Assembly: GCA_035569395.1 (NCBI GenBank)
Contig: DATMNC010000062.1
Location: 30,591-94,590 of the forward strand
Direction: 5' to 3'
Length of the DNA stretch: 64,000 bases
DNA from: Thermoanaerobaculia bacterium
Lineage (GTDB): Bacteria > Acidobacteriota > Thermoanaerobaculia > Gp7-AA8
Under the pieces are notes generated by a model, which ran no database searches, had not been told where the DNA came from, and saw only the letters and a list, made by a program, of their open reading frames with translations. Made by a program: the position numbers and the translations under genes. Below are positions 2,186 through 60,074 of this stretch, in pieces; the first letter of the stretch is position 1, and every line of letters starts with the position of its first letter.

Positions 2186-3555
2186 GCCTGCTCGCACGCT
2201 ATCGCTCGCTGCTGGAAGCTACCAGTGGTCTGTTCGCGCAACAGAGAACAGCTCGCCGCTCGGTGGAGTTCTCTCTGGCTATGCCGGCTTCCGTGGGCCG
2301 GCACACCATCACCAATGCCTTGTCGGTTCTGGGCCGCACCCAGGTGGACTGGAGTGGCGCGTACAAGTTCTTCAGCCGCTCACGCTGGAACCAGGCTGGT
2401 CGGTTTCGGCCTGTCTTCGAACATTACCTCCAGATGTTCCCCTCAGGCCCGATCGCCATCGCCGTGGACGACACCAAGGCGCATAAGGTAGGAAAGAAGA
2501 TCCGTTCTGCCTTCTGGCAGCGCGATCCGCTCTCGCCTCCCTTCCATGCCAATCTGATCTGGGCTCAGCGCTTTCTCCACTTCTCGCTGATCTTTCCGCT
2601 CCATCGAAACGGCCTGGTTCCGGCTCGCTCGCTTCCGGTTCGCTTTGAGGATGCTCCGGCCCTCAAAAAGCCAGGCATCCGAGGCTCGCTCCAGCAGTGG
2701 GAGGCGTATCGACAGCAGGTCAAACAGACCAATCTTTCGACCCAAGCGCGCACCACGGCCGAGGAAATCCGTAAGCACCTCGATCAGCTTGGTCAAGCCC
2801 ATCGCTCACTGCTGCTACCCGTGGACGGAAGCTTCTGCAATCGGCGCTTCTTTCGTGAACCGCTCGATCGCACCTACATCCTGGCCCGTGCTCGCAAGGA
2901 TGCCCGTCTTTGCTTTCCCGCCCCCGCCGGATCGCGACGCCGCTATGACGCGAACCTATTTACTCCCGAGGCTGTCCGCAAGGACGACTCCATTCCCTGG
3001 CACAAGGCCACGGTCTTTTTTGGCGGAAAGCGTCGTAAGGTCCGATTCAAGGTCGTCAACAAAGTTCTGTGGCGGCGAGGCTCGGGGCTCCGAACCCTTC
3101 GACTGATCGTCCTGGCACCAACTCCCTACCGGCTCTCCCCAAATGCTTCGATCAACTACCGCGATCCGGCCTACCTGCTCACCGACGAGTTGGCCTCTTC
3201 GCTGACCTCACTTCTCCAGAGCTACTTCGACCGTTGGCAGATCGAAGTCAATCATCGTGAAATCAAGCAGCACTTCGGCGCTGGCCAAGCCCAAGTTCGG
3301 GCCCTTTTATCTGTGCCGCGGGTTCCCGCCTTTGTGGTCTCCTGCTACAGCCTTCTCCATCTGGCCGGGCTTCTCGAGTTCGGCTCCTCACGAATCGACC
3401 GATATTCGCCTCTGCCTATATGGAGGCGAGCTTCGACGCGCCCTTCCATCGCCGATCTGCTCCGTCTGCTACGAACAGATCTGAACGAAACGCGAGATTC
3501 AACTTCCGGACTTCAAATCCCTGCGGCCAATCTCGTTCTCTCTCCCGCTGCCTGA
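2182..3555 (+). CDS. DDE transposase, IS4-family type (DDE_Tnp_1-like)
   Basis: 457 aa; C-terminal Y-x2-R-x3-E-x6-K signature (YFDRWQIEVNHREIKQ) typical of IS4-family transposases; sits inside terminal inverted repeats. Confidence 0.7.
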   Translation: MSLLARYRSLLEATSGLFAQQRTARRSVEFSLAMPASVGRHTITNALSVLGRTQVDWSGAYKFFSRSRWNQAGRFRPVFEHYLQMFPSGPIAIAVDDTKAHKVGKKIRSAFWQRDPLSPPFHANLIWAQRFLHFSLIFPLHRNGLVPARSLPVRFEDAPALKKPGIRGSLQQWEAYRQQVKQTNLSTQARTTAEEIRKHLDQLGQAHRSLLLPVDGSFCNRRFFREPLDRTYILARARKDARLCFPAPAGSRRRYDANLFTPEAVRKDDSIPWHKATVFFGGKRRKVRFKVVNKVLWRRGSGLRTLRLIVLAPTPYRLSPNASINYRDPAYLLTDELASSLTSLLQSYFDRWQIEVNHREIKQHFGAGQAQVRALLSVPRVPAFVVSCYSLLHLAGLLEFGSSRIDRYSPLPIWRRASTRPSIADLLRLLRTDLNETRDSTSGLQIPAANLVLSPAA

Positions 3556-3577
3556 CTCGGTAATGTCCAAACTCCAG

Positions 3578-4373: not shown

Positions 4374-4446
4374 GAGGGCACGGTTGGTGACGGAAGCGCG
4401 AAGAAGCCCTCTCCTCCGTCACCGGAACCACTTCCCTCGGAGGCGG

Positions 4447-4553
4447 AACCAAAATTCAATCCGTCAGAACTAAAATTCAATCCGTCAGAACCAAAAATCA
4501 ATCCGTCATTGCCAAAAATCAATCCGTCATTGCCAAAATTCAATCCGTCAGAA
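4447..4553. repeat. tandem repeat, 5 copies of a ~21-bp unit (yAAAAwTCAATCCGTCAgaac/ttgc)
   Basis: Direct reading: taaaattcaatccgtcagaac / caaaaatcaatccgtcattgc x2 / caaaattcaatccgtcagaac; AT-rich relative to the surrounding sequence. Confidence 0.8.
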
Positions 4554-4583
4554 CAATATATTATTCTGTCACAGCGAATTTCG

Positions 4584-4726
4584 TTTCCGGCGGAGCGCCC
4601 GGCCGCTCCACGGGAAACGAAATTCAATCCTGCAGAATGATTTTTGTTTCCGAAGGAGCGCCGGCCCGTTCCGGCAGAAACAAAATTCGTTCCGACGGAA
4701 TGATTTTTCGCTCCTTCAGAATGATA
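4584..4726. repeat. two direct ~63-bp repeats plus partial third (gtttccg[g/a]..gagcgcc..ggc...gaaac.aaattc.ttcc..c.gaatgatttt)
   Basis: 4584-4644 and 4646-4708 align with few mismatches; partial third copy follows. Confidence 0.6.
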
Positions 4727-17126: not shown

Positions 17127-17143
17127 GGGGGGGAAGTGTATAT

Positions 17144-17312
17144 GCGGTTGCGCGGTCTCGGGGTTGCGCGGTCTCGGGGTTGCCCGGTCTCGGGGTTGCC
17201 CGGTTGCGCGGGGTTGTCGGTTATCAGTTGTCGGTTGCTGAGTTGCTGGGTTACGTGGTCGGGCCCGGCAGCCCGCCGCGAGACCGCGCAACCCCGCGAC
17301 CGCGAGACCGCA
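17144..17312. repeat. intergenic hairpin element, family B (GCGGTCTCG / GGGGTTGCG sub-repeats), in divergent promoter region
   Basis: Left arm is five or more tandem ggttgcgcggtctcgg units; right arm cgcgagaccgcgcaaccccgcgaccgcgagaccgc is the complement. Confidence 0.75.
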
Positions 17313-19060: not shown

Positions 19061-19144
19061 GGGTTTCTGGGTTGCTGGGTTGCAGAGTTGCTAGGGATTG
19101 GAAGAAACCCAGCAACTCAGCAACCCAGCAACCCAGCAACCGCG
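19061..19144. repeat. intergenic hairpin element, family C (GGGTTGCT sub-repeats)
   Basis: gggtttctgggttgctgggttgcagagttgctaggg...gaaacccagcaactcagcaacccagcaacccagcaacc. Confidence 0.75.
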
Positions 19145-20389: not shown

Positions 20390-20418
20390 GAGGAGAGTTT
20401 AGCTGGAGTGGGGGTTAC

Positions 20419-20647
20419 ACGCGCGGAGGCGCGCCGGACAATCCAGCCCCGCGCTCGGCGCGGGGTTTGTGTATCGACCGGAATTGCGGCCGCGGAGGCA
20501 GCCGCTACAAAGTCGAACGATCGAGAGGATTCCGACGTATCCGGCGACGGTTTGTCGCGGCCGCCTCCGCGGCCGCAATTCCTGGCTCACGAACGTACCC
20601 CGCGCCGAGCGCGGGGCTGGATTGTCCGGGCGCGCCTCCGCGCGCGT
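20419..20647. repeat. MITE-like nested-palindrome element, copy 1 (outer ~47-bp inverted repeat, inner gaattgcggccgcggaggcagccgc inverted repeat)
   Basis: acgcgcggaggcgcgccggacaatccagccccgcgctcggcgcgggg...ccccgcgccgagcgcggggctggattgtccgggcgcgcctccgcgcgcgt; homologous copy at 42959-43200. Confidence 0.7.
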
Positions 20648-20712
20648 AACCGGCGGTGCTTCGCGGCGCCTTGGAACATTGACGACGCCGCGATAGCGGC
20701 ACAAAGAGGGTA

Positions 20713-20898
20713 GCCAGAGGTGCGAGCGCTTTTTGCGAGCACCTCTGGTCGTTGTGTGCGTTGAAATTGTGCCGCGTCAGCGGCACTGGATGAGTGAGAC
20801 GAATGACGATCGCGACGACTTCCGGTGCCGCTGACGCGGCACGAAATCCATAACGTCCGCTTCCAGGGGTGCTCGCAAAAAGCGCTCGCACCCCTGGC
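20713..20898. repeat. second nested-palindrome element (ccagaggtgcgagcgctttttgcgagcacctctgg hairpins at both ends, inner gccgcgtcagcggcac inverted repeat)
   Basis: Arms 20713-20750 and 20863-20898 are reverse complements and each is itself a hairpin. Confidence 0.65.
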
Positions 20899-20974
20899 TA
20901 TCGTCTTGTTGCCGCTATCGCGGCAAGACTCGCCGCTTCGCGTCGCCATCAATGAGGTGCGGCCGTATTGATGC

Positions 20975-24617: not shown

Positions 24618-24619
24618 TG

Positions 24620-24709
24620 CGGTTGCGGGGTCCCGAGGTTGCGCGGTCTCGCGGTTGTGTAGGGCGAAGAAACTGCGAGACCGCGTAACCGCGAGACCCC
24701 GCGACCGCG
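24620..24709. repeat. intergenic hairpin element, family B
   Basis: gcggttgcggggtcccgaggttgcgcggtctcgcggttgtg...ctgcgagaccgcgtaaccgcgagaccccgcgaccgcgc. Confidence 0.75.
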
Positions 24710-25273: not shown

Positions 25274-25362
25274 TGGGTTGCTCGGTTGCTGGGTTGCTTG
25301 GTTGCTCGGTGCCAGTGATTTGACTCTACCCAGCAACGCAGCAACCGAGAAACCCTGCAACC
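25274..25362. repeat. intergenic hairpin element, family C
   Basis: gggttgctcggttgctgggttgcttggttgctcgg...cccagcaacgcagcaaccgagaaaccctgcaacc. Confidence 0.75.
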
Positions 25363-26535: not shown

Positions 26536-26546
26536 TTTTATGAGAA

Positions 26547-26625
26547 GTTATCGGTTGTCGGTTATCGGTTCTCGGTTGCGGCCACAACCCACAACTGACA
26601 ACTGACAACCGATAACCGACAACCA
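26547..26625. repeat. intergenic hairpin element, family A
   Basis: gttatcggttgtcggttatcggttctcggttgcgg / ccacaacccacaactgacaactgacaaccgataaccgacaacc. Confidence 0.75.
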
Positions 26626-26640
26626 ATTCGCGTCAGCGTC

Positions 26641-30736: not shown

Positions 30737-31202
30737 CATTCTGTTGATGTTTGCTCTTGCCTGCACCCAGCGGACGCCAACGCCGAGTCCGGCCACGACG
30801 ATGGCTGCGGCGAGCGCTCAGCGCATCGTCTTTCCCGACCACTTCGTCGTTGCGGTCGAAGTGGCTTCGGACGATGAAACCCGGTCGCAGGGCCTGATGT
30901 ACCGCGATCACCTGGCTGACGATCGGGGGATGATCTTTCTCTTTGTGCAGCCTGGCGACTATCCGTTCTGGATGAAGAACACGCTCATCCCGCTCGACAT
31001 GATCTGGATGGACAGCCAGCACCGCATCGTCCATATCGCCCATGACGTCCAGCCCTGCAAAGCCGACCCCTGCCCGAACTATCCGCCGAAGGCGCAGGCC
31101 TCATCCGTCCTGGAACTGGCCGCCGGCGTGGCGGCCAAGCATCACCTTGCCAACGGCAACGTGCTGCGGTTCGAGGGGCTGGAGAACGTAGTGGTGCGGT
31201 AG
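30726..31202 (+). CDS. DUF192 domain protein (secreted/lipoprotein-like)
   Basis: N-terminal signal MKASILLMFALAC; DUF192-like core. Confidence 0.65.
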   Translation: MKASILLMFALACTQRTPTPSPATTMAAASAQRIVFPDHFVVAVEVASDDETRSQGLMYRDHLADDRGMIFLFVQPGDYPFWMKNTLIPLDMIWMDSQHRIVHIAHDVQPCKADPCPNYPPKAQASSVLELAAGVAAKHHLANGNVLRFEGLENVVVR

Positions 31203-31372
31203 GGGTTGCGGGGTCTCGCGGTCTCGGGGTTGCGCGGTCTCGAAGTTGCGGGGAGCTCTCTGAAATTGGAGTCTCGCGGTCTCGAAGTTGCGCGGTCTCG
31301 CGGTGTTTCGGGCTCACGCGGCGTGATGACGTCGCATCCCGCGAGACCCCGCAACCGCGAGACCCCGCAACC
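31202..31372. repeat. intergenic hairpin element, family B (long left arm, short right arm)
   Basis: ggggttgcggggtctcgcggtctcggggttgcgcggtctcgaagttgcgggg...cgcgagaccccgcaaccgcgagaccccgcaacc. Confidence 0.75.
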
Positions 31373-31469
31373 ACGCCTGCAAACGAATTCAACACTCTCG
31401 CCGTCCAATGCGTAACAACCGCACGGGAGGCATTGAATTATTCAATCCAGGACTTACGTTCGGATCGTC

Positions 31470-32387
31470 ATGTTCCGAAGTCGCGGTGAAAATCTGCGCT
31501 CGACGTACATTCTCCTGTTCCTGAATGTCGCGTTCTTCCTTCTCCAATACCAGGACGCCCAGAAGTTCACCCGCCTCTTCGGATTCGACCGGAACGCCGT
31601 TGCCACCGGACAGATCTGGCGCCTGTTCACCTACCAGTTCGCGCAGGCCGGTCATGTCGGCGCGTTCACGATCCCGCCGGTTCTGACCCTCTTTCTCAAT
31701 CTCGTGTTGCTCTCGTTGATGGGGTTCGCCGTCGAGGAGCAGTGGGGAACGGGAAACTTCCTTCGCTTCTATCTGATGTCGACACTGGCGACGGCGCTCG
31801 TGGCAGCCTGGTTCAACACGCCGCTCCTCGGTTCCTTCTTCATCAATTTCACGTTGCTGTTCGTCTACGCCGCGCTCAACCGCGATCAGACGTTCTATCT
31901 CTCGACGATCCTGCCCATCCGCGTAACGTTTCTGGCCTGGCTGGCGCTGGCGGCGCTGCTTACCGGCGTCTTTTTCGGCAGCAAGACCAATCTGGCGGCG
32001 CTGGCCGGGGCTGTTGTCGGTTTCGGCTATTACGTTTCGCAGCGTGTGCGGGTGCTGGCGATCGCAACGCGGGAGACTGGTCCGGCACCAAGGCTCGGAT
32101 CGGAGGATGCCGCGGTGGTCGCCGCCACACGCAATATCACCCGCGTAGCGGCCATGAAACGGGCTCTAGTCACAGGGTCTGACTCCGACATCAATCGTCT
32201 GATCGACCTCGCGCAACGCGAGAAAGTCAACGGCGTCAACATCTGCGAGCCGATCGACTTCAAGCCGGAGCACTCAGACCGCTACTGCATCCGCTGCGAA
32301 GGGTTCGCCGAATGCACGGCCCGCCATCTCCAGCTCAACCGGCCGAAGGTTGCTGCGCAGGCGCCGGCGACGGCAACGCTCGCGTAA
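31470..32387 (+). CDS. rhomboid-family membrane protein, probably catalytically divergent or inactive, with C-terminal Cys-rich tail
   Basis: WRLFTYQFAQAGHVGAF...NLVLLSLMGFAVEEQWGTGNFLRFYLMS matches rhomboid TM2/L1 signature, but the usual His residues are replaced and GxSG is degenerate (LLGSFF). Confidence 0.55.
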   Translation: MFRSRGENLRSTYILLFLNVAFFLLQYQDAQKFTRLFGFDRNAVATGQIWRLFTYQFAQAGHVGAFTIPPVLTLFLNLVLLSLMGFAVEEQWGTGNFLRFYLMSTLATALVAAWFNTPLLGSFFINFTLLFVYAALNRDQTFYLSTILPIRVTFLAWLALAALLTGVFFGSKTNLAALAGAVVGFGYYVSQRVRVLAIATRETGPAPRLGSEDAAVVAATRNITRVAAMKRALVTGSDSDINRLIDLAQREKVNGVNICEPIDFKPEHSDRYCIRCEGFAECTARHLQLNRPKVAAQAPATATLA

Positions 32388-32401
32388 ACGGCTGCTGCGC
32401 C

Positions 32402-32716
32402 GCGTTGTCGGTTATCGGTCCAATTTGATGCGGTATCGATCCAATTTGGAGCGGTATCGGTCAAATTTGATGCGGCATCGATCCAATCTGGACCGGTATC
32501 GATCCAATTTGGAGCGGTATCGATCCGATTTGACGCGGTATCGATCCAATTTGGAGCGTTCATCGATCCGATTTGATGCGGTATCGATCCGATTTGATGC
32601 GATATCGATCCGTTTGGAGCGGTATCAGTCCAATTTGATGCGATTTCGGTCCCGAGGCTCGCCGCGGTTCGGCAAAATCTACCGATAACCGACAACCGAC
32701 AACGCGGCGCAGCCGC
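32402..32716. repeat. family A hairpin element whose core carries a 21-bp minisatellite (about 10 copies of GGTATCGATCCAATTTGRWGC, 32441-32650)
   Basis: Flanks gcgttgtcggttatcgg and ccgataaccgacaaccgacaacgcgg are inverted. Interior is a tandem array of ggtatcgatccaatttggagc / ggtatcgatccgatttgatgc units. ORFs 32282-32695(-) and 32350-32688(+) are repeat translations. Confidence 0.85.
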
Positions 32717-32718
32717 AA

Positions 32719-33366
32719 CTATGACGGCGGGGTCTCTGGTCCACCACTACCACCCCCACCACCGCGGCGCCGGCGGAAACGTCTCCGCCGTTTGGGACCG
32801 TCACCCTCGGGGCGCGGCGTTCCGCCATCCTCGCGAGGAGGCTGAGGATTCGGGCGCGCCGCCTGGGGCGGGCGCGGCGGACGCGGCTCGCGCGGCGGCC
32901 TCGGTTGCAGCGGGGCTGCATTCTGGTTGGCCGCGGCAGATTCTGCTGGTTTGCCGCCGCGACGACGGCGGCGACGGCGGCCCGTCCGCTCTCCTTCGGC
33001 TTGCGGGGATGTCTGTTGCTGCTGTGGCCGCGGCTGCTGCGGAGGGCGTTGCTGGTTAGGACGCTGTGGCTGCGGACCGCCACGCTGCGGACGTTGCGGA
33101 CGGCCATCGCGGCCTCGCTCGCGCTGCTGCTGTTGCGGCCTGGCATCGGGCCGCGGAGGACGTCCGCCGCCACCACCACCCGCGCGACGCTCGTCCTTCT
33201 TGCCCGTCCGCTGCTCAAACTCCTGCAGCTTCCGCTGCATGTACTTGCGGATCGGTCCGTCCTGACGGGCCCGCATCTCGTCGAAACCGCAGTACGGGCA
33301 GCGCTTCCAACCTTCGGGATAGGTTTTCCTGCAGGAGTTGCAAAGGATGCTTTTGGGGAGCGGCAT
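32719..33366 (-). CDS. zinc-ribbon protein with long disordered R/G/P/Q-rich tail
   Basis: MPLPKSILCNSCRKTYPEGWKRCPYCGF (CxxC...CxxC) followed by a low-complexity RGG/PQ-rich region; start taken at MPLPKS. Confidence 0.5.
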   Translation of the reverse strand: MPLPKSILCNSCRKTYPEGWKRCPYCGFDEMRARQDGPIRKYMQRKLQEFEQRTGKKDERRAGGGGGGRPPRPDARPQQQQRERGRDGRPQRPQRGGPQPQRPNQQRPPQQPRPQQQQTSPQAEGERTGRRRRRRRGGKPAESAAANQNAAPLQPRPPREPRPPRPPQAARPNPQPPREDGGTPRPEGDGPKRRRRFRRRRGGGGGSGGPETPPS

Positions 33367-33552
33367 TGTCGGGCGGGGCGCATTGTACACTTCCAGCCAT
33401 GGAGCTTCCGGACGATGCCGCACGCCGCAAAACACTGCGGACGCTGATCGAATTGGCCGAGGGCTCCAGTCCCTCCGACTGCTGGGACGATGCCCGCGCC
33501 GAGGATCTGTTGCGATCGCAATCGTCGCCGGACGAAGTGCGGGGGCTGGGAA

Positions 33553-33992
33553 TGAGCGAAGAGATGATTGCCAGAGTCTTTCGGGAGTCGGGGAACCGAC
33601 AACCGACAACCGGCAAACGTTTCACAGTCCGCGTCTCCGCCCGCTTCGAAGCCGCACACTTCCTTCGCGAATACCGCGGCATCTCCGAGCCGCTGCATGG
33701 GCACTCCTACAAGGTCGAAGCCGACCTCGCCGCACGGGCGGGGGGCGTCGACTCCGATGCCATCGCGGTCGATTTCGTCACTGCCCGGCGCAAGCTCGAA
33801 GCGCTGGCCAAACGGCTCGATTACGGCTGTATCAACGACGTTCCGCCCTTCGACGAGATCAATCCTTCCGCGGAGAACATCGCCGAATGGTTCGCGGACC
33901 AGCTCGGTGAGGCGGTGGCCGGGGAGGATGCCGTCGTTCTGGCTGTGACCATATGGGAAGGACCGGTGAACTCGGTAACGTTCCGTCCATGA
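33553..33992 (+). CDS. queD: 6-carboxy-5,6,7,8-tetrahydropterin synthase (QueD/PTPS family)
   Basis: FTVRVSARFEAAHFLREYRG...EPLHGHSYKVE (C-E-x-H-G-H core). Alternative in-frame upstream ATG at 33399. Codons for GNRQPTTGKR derive from a family A repeat motif. Confidence 0.8.
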
Positions 33993-42584: not shown

Positions 42585-42628
42585 GGGTTTGTTGCGGCGG
42601 GTTATCGGTTGTCAGTTGTCGGTTGCGA
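42585..42628. repeat. family A repeat, single arm
   Basis: ggggtttgttgcggcgggttatcggttgtcagttgtcggttgcg without an evident complementary arm. Confidence 0.55.
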
Positions 42629-42677
42629 ACAGAGTGGTTCACCGCAGTCATAATTGGACCGATTGGAAGGATCCTCG

Positions 42678-42938
42678 ATGAAATGCCGAGTTTGCGGAGG
42701 GACGCAGCAACCCACAAACACTGATCTCCCCTTCAAGACAGGAGAGCGGTCCATCGTGATCATTAAGTCTCTTCCGGTGATTCAGTGCCCGCAGTGCTAC
42801 GAGTACTCGATCGACGATCCGACGTTGCGGAGAGTGGAGGAGACCCTTGCCAGGGTCGATTCCGGCGCTGAGCTGGAGATCATCCCCTTTGCAGCTGAGT
42901 TCACAGCGCGGGCTTCTCTCGCAACCGAGGGGACTTGA
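42678..42938 (+). CDS. YgiT-type zinc-finger protein (MqsA N-terminal-like)
   Basis: MKCRVCGG...VIQCPQCYEY four-Cys zinc ribbon, about 85 aa; no partner toxin gene evident. Confidence 0.55.
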   Translation: MKCRVCGGTQQPTNTDLPFKTGERSIVIIKSLPVIQCPQCYEYSIDDPTLRRVEETLARVDSGAELEIIPFAAEFTARASLATEGT

Positions 42939-42958
42939 CGCCAGCCCTGGGCCGGATG

Positions 42959-43200
42959 CGCGCGAAGGCGCGCTCAACAATCCAGCCCCGCGCTCGGCGG
43001 AGCACGAGCGCGGGGTAAGAAGTGTCAGCAATTTGCCGGCCGCGGAGGCGGCCGGGACAACCGCCCGGTTCGCGCGAGAAGCGAGATCCTCACAGCCTGT
43101 GGCAGCCGCCTCCGCGGCCGCACCTCAACATCCCATCGATACCCCGCGCCCGCGCTACGCCGAGCGCGGGGCTGAATTGGAGTGCGCGCCTCAGCGCGCA
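42959..43200. repeat. MITE-like nested-palindrome element, copy 2 (homologous to 20419-20647)
   Basis: Shares caatccagccccgcgctcggcg, gccgcggaggcggcc and ccccgcgc.gagcgcggggctgaattg motifs in the same nested arrangement. Confidence 0.7.
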
Positions 43201-43282
43201 ACCGAAATCTTCCCGTCGCGCGCAGAAATTAAAGGTTAGTAGTACAGAGAACCGAGAACCGACAACCCGGCGAAGCCGCGCG

Positions 43283-46782: not shown

Positions 46783-46798
46783 GATTGCAGCTTCGCTG

Positions 46799-46936
46799 CG
46801 TTGTCGGCTATCGGTTATCGGTTGTCAGGGCGCGATACGACGATTTCTCACGTTCCCGATCGCCGACGGCACCATATCAAACGATCGAGACGCTGAGACG
46901 AACCGACAACCGATAACCGACAACCGACAACGCGGC
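46799..46936. repeat. intergenic hairpin element, family A (arms about 37 bp, 64-bp spacer) in divergent promoter region
   Basis: gcgttgtcggctatcggttatcggttgtcagggcgcg...cgaaccgacaaccgataaccgacaaccgacaacgcgg. Confidence 0.75.
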
Positions 46937-47007
46937 AAAGCCGCATTCCCTCGAACCCTGCTACACTTTCGGCACTAGCGTTCAGCACCGCGGGAGGGGG
47001 CGGACCC

Positions 47008-47243: not shown

Positions 47244-48704
47244 ATGCCGAAGAAAATCCTCCTCGCGGATGACAGCATCACCATTCAGAAGGTCGTCGAG
47301 CTCACGTTTTCTGATGGCGACTATGAAGTGACCGCGGTCAACAACGGCGCGAAGGCGATCCAGAAACTGGCCGAGATGCGGCCCGACATCATCCTCTCGG
47401 ACATCATCATGCCGGAGAAGAACGGCTACGAGGTCTGCGAGTACGTGAAGTCGCATCCCGAGTACCGCAACATCCCGGTGATCCTGCTGACCGGCACGTT
47501 CGAGCCATTCGATCCCGACCGTGCCGACAAGGCCGGCTGCGATGCCGTGGTCACGAAACCGTTCGAGTCGCAGAGCCTCATCCACAAGGTCGAGGAACTG
47601 ATTCAGCAAAGTCAGTCGAGCATTGCCGCCGCCGGGCAGGAACCGGCCGCGGCGGCCGCGGATCCCTTCGCGCATGACAACGACATCTTTTCGGCTGCTC
47701 CGCCGGTGGCGCCGGCGTTCGCCGCGGAGATGCCGTTCGACGCACCGTCCGAGGATTTCAGCGGAGAGACGCGTGCCTTCTCGCGTATGAGCTTCGAGGA
47801 GATGCAGCAGATGGCGAATGAGCCGAGCCTGCCGACGACCGCGCCGCAGCCGGCGATGCCCGAGCCCGAACTTCCGCCGGTCGAGGCTTCACCGGCCGAG
47901 GCTCCAGTAATCGAGCCTTCGCCCTGGGACGAAGCACCATCGGCCTTCGGCGGTGAGACGCGCGCCTTCCCCCGAATGAGCTTCGAGGAGATGCAACAGA
48001 TGGCGGCAGAGCCGTCGGCTCCGCCTCCGCCGCCACCTCCGGCTGCTCCCGAGCCGTCACCATGGGATGAGCCGCAGGACGATGCCTCGACGCGCGCCAT
48101 TCCCAAGATGAGCTTCGAAGAGATGCGCCAGATGGCCGAGGCGTCGCAGGAACAGCCGGCGCCATTCGAGGTACCCAATCCGCCACCGGAGCCGGAAGCG
48201 TCGCCGTGGGATGAACAGCCGGCCGCATTCGCCGCTGAGACGCGTGCCTTCACGCGCATGAGTTTCGAAGAGATGCAGCAGTTGTCGTCGGCTCCCCCCG
48301 CGTCACCTGAGCCGTCATGGTCTCCGACCGCGGATCCGTTCGCAGAACCGGCGCCGGAGCCGGCCGCCGAAGAACCGGACTGGTCGATGCCGGCGCCGAT
48401 TCCCGAAGAGGCCAGCGAGCCGCTCGTCAACAGCCAGATCACCGACGATGTGAATCCGCAGATCGCCGACGTCAACCCCCAGATCACGGACGTCAATGAC
48501 CAGATTACGGACGTCAACTCGCAGATCACCGACGTCAACCCGCAGATTACCGACCTTACCGACGAACAGGTCGACCGCATCGCCCGCCGCGTGGTGCAGA
48601 TGATGTCGGAACAGGTCGTCCGCAACATCGCCTGGGAAGTCATCCCCGACCTCGCCGAGATGGTGGTGAAGGAGAGGATCCGCCAGCTCGAAGCGGAGGC
48701 GTGA
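47244..48704 (+). CDS. response regulator receiver protein with long repetitive C-terminal region
   Basis: N-terminal CheY-like REC (ILLADDS...DIILSDIIMPEKNGYEV...TKPF). Then four copies of ETRAF.RMSFEEMQQ and six 7-aa QITDVN. repeats. C-terminal helix. Confidence 0.8.
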   Translation: MPKKILLADDSITIQKVVELTFSDGDYEVTAVNNGAKAIQKLAEMRPDIILSDIIMPEKNGYEVCEYVKSHPEYRNIPVILLTGTFEPFDPDRADKAGCDAVVTKPFESQSLIHKVEELIQQSQSSIAAAGQEPAAAAADPFAHDNDIFSAAPPVAPAFAAEMPFDAPSEDFSGETRAFSRMSFEEMQQMANEPSLPTTAPQPAMPEPELPPVEASPAEAPVIEPSPWDEAPSAFGGETRAFPRMSFEEMQQMAAEPSAPPPPPPPAAPEPSPWDEPQDDASTRAIPKMSFEEMRQMAEASQEQPAPFEVPNPPPEPEASPWDEQPAAFAAETRAFTRMSFEEMQQLSSAPPASPEPSWSPTADPFAEPAPEPAAEEPDWSMPAPIPEEASEPLVNSQITDDVNPQIADVNPQITDVNDQITDVNSQITDVNPQITDLTDEQVDRIARRVVQMMSEQVVRNIAWEVIPDLAEMVVKERIRQLEAEA

Positions 48705-48706
48705 TT

Positions 48707-48779
48707 GCGGTTGCGCGGTCTCGCGGTTGCGCGGTCTCGAAGTGACCGCGCGACTTCGCGACCACGAGACTCCGCAACC
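48707..48779. repeat. intergenic hairpin element, family B
   Basis: gcggttgcgcggtctcgcggttgcgcggtctcgaagtg / cgcgcgacttcgcgaccacgagactccgcaacc. Confidence 0.75.
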
Positions 48780-49496: not shown

Positions 49497-49650
49497 AGTC
49501 TGTTAACTGCCTCTGGAAGGCTATTAACTGCCTCTGGAAGGCTGTTAACTGCCTCTGGAAGGCTGTTAACTGCCTTTGGAAGGCTGTTAACTGCCTCTGG
49601 AAGGCTGTTAACTGCCTCTGGAAGGCTACTAACTGCCTCTCGGAGGCTGT
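49497..49650. repeat. minisatellite: 7 tandem copies of the 22-bp unit GCTGTTAACTGCCTCTGGAAGG
   Basis: Read directly; variants gctattaac, gcctttgg, gctactaac; sits between convergent genes. Confidence 0.85.
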
Positions 49651-49740
49651 TAAAAGCCGGGGGTTACGACCTCTCGCCGGCTCCGCCGGCAATACGTGCT
49701 CGTTCGCCGGTTCCGTTGATGACGGATATCCTTTCCAGTA

Positions 49741-58120: not shown

Positions 58121-58969
58121 TCAGGCACGCGCAATTCGTATGTTATCAATCAGCCGCGTCCGTCCGATTCGTACCGCGCCGACGAGAAGGAGGTCGCGCC
58201 GGAGATCAGCGGGCGGCAGAAAGGTCTCCGGATCGACGACGGTGAGGTAATCGATCTCGATTCCGGGCCTCTTCTCGATCATCTTTCGCATCAATGTCTC
58301 GATGGCGCTCACGTCCCGGATGCCGCGGATGACAGCCTCTTCTCCTGCCCGCAGTGCGCGATACAGCGCCGGCGCGAGTCTTCGTTCGTCCGGAGACAGA
58401 TAGCTGTTGCGCGACGACAACGCCAGGCCGTCGTGCTCGCGCGCGGTCTCGGCGAAGATGAGCCGCACCGGGACATCGAGATCGCCGACCATCCGATCGA
58501 TCACCGCGCACTGCTGGGCGTCCTTCCGTCCGAAGACGGCCAGATCGGGCTGGACGATGTTGAACAGCTTCATCACGACCGTGGCCACGCCATCGAAGTG
58601 TCCGGGGCGCCGTTCGCCTTCGAGGGGCATGGCCACGGCTCCGGCCGACACCGTCGTCTGTGAGCCCGGCGGATACATGATCCCGACCGACGGCAGAAAG
58701 AGGAGATCGACGTCTTTCCCCGTCAACAGCTCCTGATCGCGCGCCTCGTCGCGCGGATAGCGCGCAAAGTCTTCATTCGCGCCGAATTGCTTCGGGTTGA
58801 CGAAGATCGAGACGACGATGAACTCCGCGCCGGCCTCGCGCGCTGTGTCGATCAGCGAGAGGTGACCTTCGTGGAGAAAGCCCATCGTGGGGATGAAGGC
58901 GATGGTCTTGCGCGAATCGCGCGCGCGGGCGATCGCTTCCCGAGCTAAAGAGATCGTGGTTGTTGTTTG
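58121..58969 (-). CDS. panC: pantoate--beta-alanine ligase
   Basis: IAFIPTMGFLHEGHLSLI (HIGH-like motif); start taken at MQTTTTIS downstream of the family C repeat. Confidence 0.9.
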   Translation of the reverse strand, partial: QTTTTISLAREAIARARDSRKTIAFIPTMGFLHEGHLSLIDTAREAGAEFIVVSIFVNPKQFGANEDFARYPRDEARDQELLTGKDVDLLFLPSVGIMYPPGSQTTVSAGAVAMPLEGERRPGHFDGVATVVMKLFNIVQPDLAVFGRKDAQQCAVIDRMVGDLDVPVRLIFAETAREHDGLALSSRNSYLSPDERRLAPALYRALRAGEEAVIRGIRDVSAIETLMRKMIEKRPGIEIDYLTVVDPETFLPPADLRRDLLLVGAVRIGRTRLIDNIRIARA

Positions 58970-58974
58970 CATGG

Positions 58975-59070
58975 GTTGCTGGGTTGCTAGGTTGCTGGGT
59001 TGCTCGATGCCGTAGCAGGGCTTTGCCTCACCCAGCAACTCAGCGACCCTGCAACCCAGTAACCCTCATT
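58975..59070. repeat. intergenic hairpin element, family C
   Basis: gggttgctgggttgctaggttgctgggttgctcg...cccagcaactcagcgaccctgcaacccagtaacc. Confidence 0.75.
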
Positions 59071-59965: not shown

Positions 59966-60047
59966 TTCAGGAGGAGCGAAGGATGAAGAATGAAGGATGA
60001 ACGATGAATACAGGCGATTCATCCTTCGTCCTTCATCCTTCAGACTT
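59966..60047. repeat. unique intergenic hairpin built from GAAGGATGAA sub-repeats
   Basis: gaaggatgaagaatgaaggatgaacgatgaat-acaggcg-attcatccttcgtccttcatccttc. Confidence 0.7.
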
Positions 60048-60074
60048 CCTCTACCCCCGTCTCGGTCCGTCGAC

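Follow-up and report, generated by a model that had tools for sequence, protein, structure and literature searches.

What is the 21-bp tandem repeat that separates two convergent genes in a contig of a Thermoanaerobaculia bacterium (Acidobacteriota; DATMNC010000062.1, positions 30,591 to 94,590), and to what kind of sequence does it belong? The stretch that was analysed, referred to here as the window, is 64,000 nt long, and an initial annotation of it had described the repeat as a perfect-period minisatellite of about 10 copies forming the expanded core of a hairpin element (family A), suggestive of a phased protein-binding array of the iteron or nucleoid-protein type. Comparison with related loci from genomes and metagenomes (designated by L-numbers, such as L001) provides a different answer. 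The array is probably one copy of a previously undescribed small, non-coding and modular interspersed repeat of a clade of soil Thermoanaerobaculia, and its best reading, drawn by analogy, is that of a BOX/MIRU-like interspersed variable number tandem repeat (VNTR) element at gene 3′ ends.

The array is real and lies far beyond what is expected by chance. Tandem Repeats Finder reports a period of 21 nt at 32413-32642 (11.0 copies, 80% matches, score 269) together with a higher-order period of 63 nt (3.7 copies, 84% matches), and a unit-by-unit layout gives eleven head-to-tail units at 32411-32641, one more than had been estimated, with the consensus GGYATCGRTCCAATYTGRWGC (also obtained from the layout as GGTATCGATCCAATTTGRWGC). 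These units are direct, with start-to-start spacings of 21-22 nt and no spacers, an arrangement that rules out a CRISPR-like array. When up to three mismatches are allowed, the 18-mer ATCGATCCRATTTGRWGC has 10 matches in the window, all within the array, compared with 0.54 expected. The period had been called perfect, which it is not, as unit 8 has 22 nt (32558-32579) and unit 10 has 20 nt (32601-32620), and the ATCGAT palindrome, said to be part of the unit, is present in eight of the eleven units and missing from the remaining three. The G+C content of the array is ~50%, compared with 60-77% in its neighbourhood, and hairpin and array together occupy the whole 331-nt gap between two convergent stop codons. 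Concerns over an assembly artefact can be dismissed because the complete long-read chromosome OY970284.1 carries 14.2 copies (L032), and the array occupies the same site in more than 20 independent assemblies, that chromosome included.

The number of units differs between strains, as the initial annotation had proposed to check. All of the recovered syntenic loci taken together give 6.0, 11.0, 14.2, 14.6, 15.2, 15.7, 16.0, 16.7, and 17.0 copies (Tandem Repeats Finder), most of these alleles coming from short-read assemblies, which can collapse repeats (L032 is long-read). The two extremes, L128 (6.0 copies) and L130 (17.0 copies), have rhomboid genes upstream of the array that are 100% identical. 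A soil metagenome contig found by an exact match to the rhomboid protein of the window (L001) has the same flanks and 14.6 copies; both array edges are identical to those of the window, there are ~4 extra internal units, and the left arm of the hairpin is one heptamer shorter. Synteny with the window extends to L023 (~92% DNA identity) and L032 (~90%), which means that the window comes from a related third lineage.

Arrays of the same unit also occur at unrelated sites. In a scan of one genome per species, multi-copy arrays were found, among the matches listed, only in two Thermoanaerobaculia metagenome-assembled genomes (MAGs), Chersky.31_28 and MFD05513.bin.1.42, the latter being the complete 6.64-Mb chromosome OY970284.1, and the remaining listed matches are single and at chance level. 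At least 8 loci in Chersky.31_28 and at least 5 in the first 1.1 Mb of OY970284.1 carry arrays, and ~25 further arrays are present in metagenome contigs; clustering by flanks, which was used to reduce arrays to independent loci, leaves ~13-15 such loci among the matches listed. All of the copies are intergenic and none is clearly located between divergent genes. Relative to the unit as written, the nearest upstream gene is co-directional at 8 independent loci, opposite at 3, and ambiguous at 2; where it is co-directional, 4-97 nt separate its stop codon from the first base of the array.

These unrelated loci have a polar design in common, in which a left module is followed by a variable interior, a 20-nt unit, a full unit, a truncated unit, and a tail. 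The left module is TTAGCCGTTGC or, instead, a first unit CGCATCGCTCC (written at unrelated loci as TTAGCCGTTG(A)GC, or a first unit CGCATCGCTCCAATTTGATGC), and the right end consists of the short unit GATTTCGRTCCGTYTGGAGC, the full unit GGYATCGGTCCAATTTGATGC, the truncated unit GATTTCGGWCC, and one of a few tails. The truncated unit seen in the window, GATTTCGGTCC, is common to nearly all loci, and the tail that follows it is also found in L032, L035, L099, L016, L224, and L268. The interior comprises 6-23 units across arrays and its variants are locus-specific, L062 containing mostly GAATCAATCTGATGC, and L048/L076 mostly GATTTCAATCC (also written GATTTCAATCCAATCTGGATC), and interiors homogenised in this way are typical of concerted evolution by slippage or unequal exchange. 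Seven unit positions, T5, C6, C11, A13, T14, T16, and G17, are near-invariant (207 units from 16 loci), positions 3, 15, 18, and 19 are near 60:40, and the mutual information between positions comes mostly from adjacent ones, reflecting variant haplotypes. Whole elements appear to have been dispersed, since the same boundary variants would not recur at unrelated loci if the arrays were of local origin.

How then is the array related to the hairpin around it? Family A itself is real, in that its double heptamer GGTTRTCGGTTRTC has 27 matches in the window compared with 0.06 expected, and inverted arms of 29 nt (32391-32419 and 32688-32716, 93% complementary, made of GGTTRTC heptamers) do bracket the array as had been reported. 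In all of the recovered loci, however, family A arms flank the array only at the syntenic locus. Long inverted repeats of another hairpin family (GAGACGCCAGCGCTCCG) bracket it in L008, L062, and L035, and at ~9 loci there is no flanking inverted repeat above the 95th percentile of the control. Along the ladder of rhomboid orthologues, the site exists in three states, namely hairpin with array (window, L001, L032, L023, L164, and L128-L140), hairpin without any unit (L141-L143), and neither family A nor this unit (L144-L148). Loci in the third state hold a different 21/22-bp array (~3430-3570) of the CCTCYTC...AGG... type (CCTCYTCRRSAGGYC...), which has an 87-nt higher-order period and varies in copy number, with more copies in L146 (2047-2469) than in L144. 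Neighbour joining of the rhomboid-gene DNA sequences groups every locus that has the array in a single clade (at least 91% identity), with the loci that have only the hairpin as sister group (84-87%) and the third-state loci as outgroup (~82%). The parsimonious history suggested by these sequences is that the hairpin came first and the array was gained once, at its apex. The insert in L032 lies exactly at the hairpin apex, where ...GGTTGTCGG is followed directly by TTAGCCGTTGC and the units, and the tail ...GGCAAAATCTA directly by CCGATAACC..., and, compared with L032, loss of the stretch between two TATCGG microhomologies explains why the left arm in the window is fused to unit 1. The arrays that lack these arms elsewhere, the hairpin-only sister lineage, and the single array-bearing clade in the locus phylogeny together rule out a family A element whose core has expanded, and for the same reasons the array is regarded as an independent element nested in the hairpin.

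Its dispersed intergenic copies, conserved ends, variable number of tandem units, location at gene 3′ ends, nesting, and spurious open reading frames (ORFs) place the array in the class of small bacterial interspersed repeats, where it is a new family within a known kind and a member of neither BOX nor MIRU. A targeted full-text search of the literature on tandem repeats in Thermoanaerobaculia and Acidobacteria found nothing relevant. BOX elements and MIRU-type VNTRs are its nearest analogues. In the BOX elements of Streptococcus pneumoniae, the terminal modules boxA and boxC surround a variable tandem boxB(n), as the conserved ends surround the variable interior here. The mean boxB size is ~45 bp, whereas the unit of the array is 21 bp and its copy numbers are much higher (6-23 units). 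BOX elements vary in length between strains, more so in large copies, and are enriched downstream of genes and between convergent genes; they cluster and nest with other repeats, are predicted to form stem-loops if transcribed, and give rise to spurious ORFs when large (PMC3049150). A 3′-end distribution like that of the array has been reported for the pneumococcal BOX, RUP, and SPRITE elements (PMC3049150). The array can be said to work like BOX in its organisation only, no sequence relationship being expected because the phylum differs. In addition, its end modules, unlike BOX-type ends, are without shown mutual complementarity, the closing stem at this locus is supplied by a separate hairpin family, and, although ISSpn2 has been proposed as the mobiliser of BOX, no candidate mobilising insertion sequence was identified for the array.

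The MIRU-VNTR loci of Mycobacterium tuberculosis are similar in that one unit family forms tandem arrays at many intergenic loci with strain variation in copy number. MIRU units are 40-100 bp long and are reported to overlap, through their small ORFs, the stop and start codons of neighbouring genes in operons. In contrast, the present unit measures 21 bp, a stop codon precedes the array by as little as 4-5 nt at two loci only, units of 20 and 22 nt that break the reading frame are conserved, and conserved polar ends are not part of the MIRU definition. MIRU-VNTRs are described as dispersed minisatellite-like loci whose strain variation can be used for typing (PMC3635867). REP/BIME sequences of enterobacteria and pseudomonads resemble the array as quasi-palindromic intergenic units at gene 3′ ends into which a mobile element inserts. 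REP elements are targeted by IS1397 (also by ISKpn1). They differ in forming inverted pairs (REPINs/BIMEs), whereas the array consists of long runs of head-to-tail direct units, and REP elements are linked to RAYT transposases. Roles in transcript 3′-end stability or attenuation have been proposed for REP/BIME (PMC3049150).

Whole elements would have been copied to many intergenic sites, presumably by a mobilising enzyme. At the site in the window, one copy entered the apex of an existing family A hairpin between convergent genes, and a clade has inherited it since. The interior would grow and shrink by slipped-strand mispairing or unequal recombination between units, and the elements probably persist at 3′ ends because insertions there are tolerated. 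Upon read-through from the upstream gene, the quasi-palindromic units and the outer arms would fold into a large stem-loop. At most, this might influence where the flanking transcripts terminate or how stable their 3′ ends are, a role that has also been suggested for BOX, REP/BIME, and ERIC. The likely fate of a copy is that of a tolerated and perhaps mildly useful 3′-end structure, of which we infer the functional step.

Folding predictions for the locus RNA give −157.8 kcal/mol for the plus strand (z = −8.2) and −147.1 kcal/mol for the minus strand (z = −6.9), but the quasi-palindromic units, together with the closing arms, make either strand fold stably, so that folding of the whole array is uninformative between strands. 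A single unit can form two alternative hairpins, termed register 1 (GYATCGR/YTGRWGC), which needs G-U pairs, and register 2 (TCCA/TGGA, variant ATCA/TGAT), which is Watson-Crick, and 89% of 454 units are able to form either register 1 (at least 6 of 7 pairs) or register 2 (5 of 5). Owing to its dependence on G-U pairs, register 1 works on the plus strand and not on the minus strand (83% and 61% paired cells, respectively). For 135 distinct units, register 2 is 78.4% paired compared with 75.9% in shuffles, no shuffle reaching the observed value. Pair-preserving changes in the conserved right end are one-sided only (U-G to C-G and G-U to A-U).

Several observations weigh against a dispersed BOX-like element that folds in the transcript. 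At the loci compared, no mobilising enzyme of the element's own, terminal inverted repeat, or target-site duplication was identified, and the 8-to-3 orientation bias is not statistically significant. The seven near-invariant positions represent more constraint than a purely neutral repeat predicts, and a period of 21 that is common to unrelated families is unaccounted for by the dispersed-element model. As to the structure, register 1 is 81.7% paired compared with 80.8% in shuffles, of which 28 of 500 reach the observed value (the same 135 units), register 2 loses its two central pairs in roughly half of the distinct units, and a set of related sequences may outscore shuffles even when no structure exists. 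Moreover, the conserved right end contains no compensatory (double) pair changes, and neither a promoter-like nor a terminator-like site was found inside 32388-32720.

The period of 21 bp is itself a property of the clade. A survey of tandem arrays (at least 3.5 copies, period of at least 15) in ~0.5 Mb of clade sequence shows that nearly all have period 21, except for four of period 16, 18, or 87, and there are at least five non-coding period-21 families whose units are unrelated to that of the array (GTTAACTGCCTCTGGAAGG, AAAATTCAATCCGTCA, CATCGAATAGGTCGATG, CCTCCTCAAAAGGCCGCGA, and TTCGCGCCTCAGGCCATCAAT). The control survey of 1.32 Mb of unrelated bacterial sequence gave 12 arrays, none with period 21, and 84 kb from more distant relatives contain heptamer and octamer hairpins and no non-coding 21-bp arrays. 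As 21 bp correspond to two helical turns and to seven codons, changes by one unit keep both rotational phase and reading frame. The shared period may go back to tolerance of such changes, to a nucleoid-structuring protein able to read the two-turn phasing, or to machinery for amplification or mobilisation that the families have in common. The window also contains a 63-nt repeat and two non-coding arrays whose 21-bp units are unrelated to that of the main array, GAACCAAAATTCAATCCGTCA with 5.2 copies and CTGTTAACTGCCTCTGGAAGG with 7.3 copies and 92% matches (Table 1). A GTTAAC family directly adjoins arrays of the present unit in L099, L035, L013, L189, and L245. The tetramer TCGA occurs in the units of three of six 21-bp families, as ATCGAT in the window array, as TTCGAG in units of the CCTC type, and as both ATCGAA and GTCGAT in the CATCGAAT family (compare L146 and L222:98-323), a frequency that by a rough estimate is above expectation for 21-mers.

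The arrays also serve as sites of insertion. An element of ~3.85 kb (L016:5689-8000 plus L013:1-1538, contig JADGNY010000092.1) has split a 21-bp array where the unit has its palindromic centre. The element is bounded by perfect 15-bp terminal inverted repeats (TAGTGGTAGCGTTTG and CAAACGCTACCACTA), with CCAATTTGGAG duplicated at both junctions, and its cargo includes an SDH/ClpP-like protease (PF01972); no transposase was recognised within it. Arrays are split in this way at two loci of one MAG, and the left end of the element recurs in L023 (~1900-2017), where it breaks up the syntenic array. The insertion resembles a mobile element with the repeat unit as its target. A cassette of ~0.8 kb occupies the same unit position in L134 (3802-4605) and is also found throughout L128-L140 and in L162, L183, and L197; such a cassette interrupts the syntenic array in a whole subclade. 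It contains a gene for a 204-aa NYN-domain protein (PF01936), a promoter-like TTGACG...TATTAT, and a GC hairpin with a T-run after it. At its right end (...TGTTACAAAC...CCACTACC), the cassette is similar to the end of the 3.85-kb element. Beyond the cassette in L134, the array tail and the right family A arm are intact. Cassettes that have terminal inverted repeats and bring cargo with them, such as the NYN-domain gene and the ClpP-like protease, may use the arrays as specific landing pads.

Such precise insertion shows that the unit is recognisable as DNA, which is one of the arguments for a phased DNA-level array, in which a unit of two helical turns would bind a nucleoid-associated or other protein, or be intrinsically curved, and thereby build a nucleoprotein structure. 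The near-invariant positions, whose neighbours vary freely, the palindromic unit centre (TCCAA-T-TTGGA), and the recurrence of period 21 in the unrelated families of the clade but not in the control all fit with this. In a wedge model, and as a lead only, the three non-coding arrays of the window fall in the top 1-2% of predicted curvature and the two main variants have a predicted net bend of ~30 degrees per unit. That model, however, scores any 21-bp repeat as curved, so that its result at the level of the array does not discriminate, and the predicted bend is small in common variants (3.9 degrees for GAATCAATC and 12.6 degrees for GATTTCAATCC). The recurrent 20-nt units shift the helical phase, otherwise near-identical strains have anywhere from 6 to 17 copies, the sister lineage has the site in its hairpin-only form, and no candidate gene for a binding protein is linked to the arrays. 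Overall, we regard a phased array as unlikely, albeit worth keeping in view. Two specific forms of it were dropped, as only a minority variant matches the first half of the IHF site WATCAANNNNTTR, and the GATC needed for phasing of the Dam/SeqA type is absent from the common GGTCC, GAATC, and CAATCC variants. That the clade has a dedicated factor or process that makes or keeps "satellite" DNA of 21-bp period, with the arrays as landing pads for cargo cassettes, is a distinctly doubtful proposition at present. An array of the iteron type that had been suggested earlier, as part of a replication origin, is extremely improbable, and so is a partition centromere of an integrated plasmid or phage. 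Iterons and centromeres of the parC/sopC type have a similar unit length and head-to-tail arrangement, and 11 direct copies of period 21 are within the 17-22 bp repeat range, but the genes on either side are of the housekeeping type and keep their synteny across relatives, and no rep or par gene accompanies them. Matches in viral contigs are single and at chance level, none being multi-copy, 72,556 plasmids give no match, and a genome has many copies in its chromosome.

At the level of the transcript, a heptad repeat (21 bp being seven codons) could encode a small repeat protein or a C-terminal extension, and in its favour stop codons are absent from five or six of the unit's six reading frames, gene callers predict ORFs of 110-162 aa through the array, and a true coding 21-bp repeat is found in the window at 48425-48554. 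By our estimate, though, ~4.3 of six frames would be open by chance in such a 21-mer, the conserved 20- and 22-nt units shift the frame, the arrays are antisense to their neighbours at some loci, and the predicted ORFs have no Pfam match and are called on opposite strands in different alleles. A coding function is therefore judged very improbable, in agreement with the initial annotation, which had considered the ORFs across the array unlikely to be genes. Public gene callers have placed ORFs of 127-162 aa through the array at L130:3436-3819, L135:3433-3921, L134:3363-3851 (minus strand), and L140:1416-1904, and such ORFs in sequence databases are probably spurious proteins. A functional RNA, either a discrete non-coding RNA or a 3′-untranslated-region module whose unit hairpins would serve as a sponge or decoy for protein or RNA, seems improbable. 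Most units can form one of the two small hairpins, register 1 works on the plus strand only, which is the sense of the upstream gene at most loci, and the one-sided changes in the conserved end keep its pairs. Yet the G+T richness of the plus strand alone favours G-U pairs, pairing is hardly above that of shuffles, the conserved end lacks double compensatory changes, no promoter-like site was found in the region, and the array is antisense to neighbouring genes at three loci. Rfam has no match to the region at the gathering threshold, the best in sensitive mode being MIR6440 with 26.4 bits compared with a gathering score of 95. A sponge of the CsrA/RsmA type, with GGA in the hairpin loops of a minus-strand transcript, was dropped since the abundant variant GAATCAATC is without GGA.

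The preferred reading, a BOX/MIRU-like interspersed element, leaves the surroundings of the array in the window to be described (Table 1). The ORFs and domain matches confirm that it lies between a rhomboid-like gene and a zinc-ribbon/RGG protein gene as first annotated, the zinc-ribbon match being weak. Orthologues of the former at 66-98% identity are labelled rhomboid family serine protease by their sources. Synteny of the latter is preserved in relatives whether or not they carry the array, so the gene is not tied specifically to it. Elsewhere in the window, family A copies are coreless, enclose unrelated unique cores of ~80-90 nt, or in one possible case span a core of ~650 nt. For the last of these, at 42600-43267, family A heptamers are located ~650 nt apart (42600-42620 on the plus and 43254-43267 on the minus strand), and between them is a 65-nt inverted repeat pair (42953-43017 and 43140-43204); a further family A hairpin, one that encloses a large nested core, may be present here. 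Intergenic hairpins whose arms are tandem 7-, 8-, or 16-mers (GGTTRTC, GGTTGCTG, GGTTGCGCGGTCTCGC, or GAAGGAT), each followed by its mirror-image array, are numerous in the window, and similar ones are found in relatives down to ~80% rhomboid identity (L269 and L271). A dense nest of inverted repeats is located at 20413-20924, with arms of 62 nt (90% complementary), 33 nt (100%), 32 nt (94%), and 23 nt (96%). The STRRs of cyanobacteria are tandem heptanucleotide repeats in intergenic regions and are comparable to family A in the tandem GGTTRTC heptamers of its arms, a comparison that concerns the arms and not the 21-bp array; unlike STRRs, the arms are mirror-image pairs that form hairpins, are unrelated in sequence, and occur in a different phylum.

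Table 1. Coordinates of the array, its hairpin, the flanking genes, and other repeats in the window.
Feature	Position	Strand	Basis or remark
Rhomboid-family membrane protease gene, co-directional with the array as written; stop 3 nt before the hairpin arm	31470..32387	+	PF01694, E=1.7e-8
Left arm of family A hairpin: GC-rich base, then CGTTGTC GGTTATC heptamers; last bases fused to array unit 1	32391..32419	+	
Units 1-9, variable interior of the 21-bp array	32411..32600	+	Tandem Repeats Finder and unit layout
Conserved 20-nt penultimate unit GATATCGATCCGTTTGGAGC; family consensus GATTTCGRTCCGTYTGGAGC	32601..32620	+	Recurs at this place in the array at most independent loci
Last full unit GGTATCAGTCCAATTTGATGC; family consensus GGYATCGGTCCAATTTGATGC	32621..32641	+	Unit layout across loci
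Right-end module: truncated unit GATTTCGGTCC, then tail ...GGCAAAATCTA	32642..32681	+	
Right arm of family A hairpin: CCGATAACC GACAACC GACAACG, then GC-rich base; ends 2 nt before the stop of the convergent gene	32682..32716	+	
Zinc-ribbon protein gene with RGG/PQ-rich tail, convergent	32719..33609	-	Weak Zn_Ribbon_1 (E=1e-3, below the Pfam cut-off) and weak DZR
Hairpins with tandem-mer arms	17143-17312, 19061-19141, 24619-24708, 25275-25362, 26546-26627, 31195-31381, 46783-46948, 48707-48779, 58967-59065, 59969-60050		
Further tandem arrays	4446-4554, 4579-4708, 49500-49653		

The element described here adds a defined interspersed repeat family to a phylum, and within it to a largely uncultured soil class, for which a targeted literature search found none described, and it accounts for the spurious "proteins" of 110-162 aa that are predicted across its arrays. 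The array loci are prone to collapse in short-read assemblies, and at the same time they are ready-made VNTR markers for the tracking of strains in metagenomes. The 21-bp period shared by unrelated families and the cassette that targets the unit provide openings for the study of how bacterial repeat families arise and are used.

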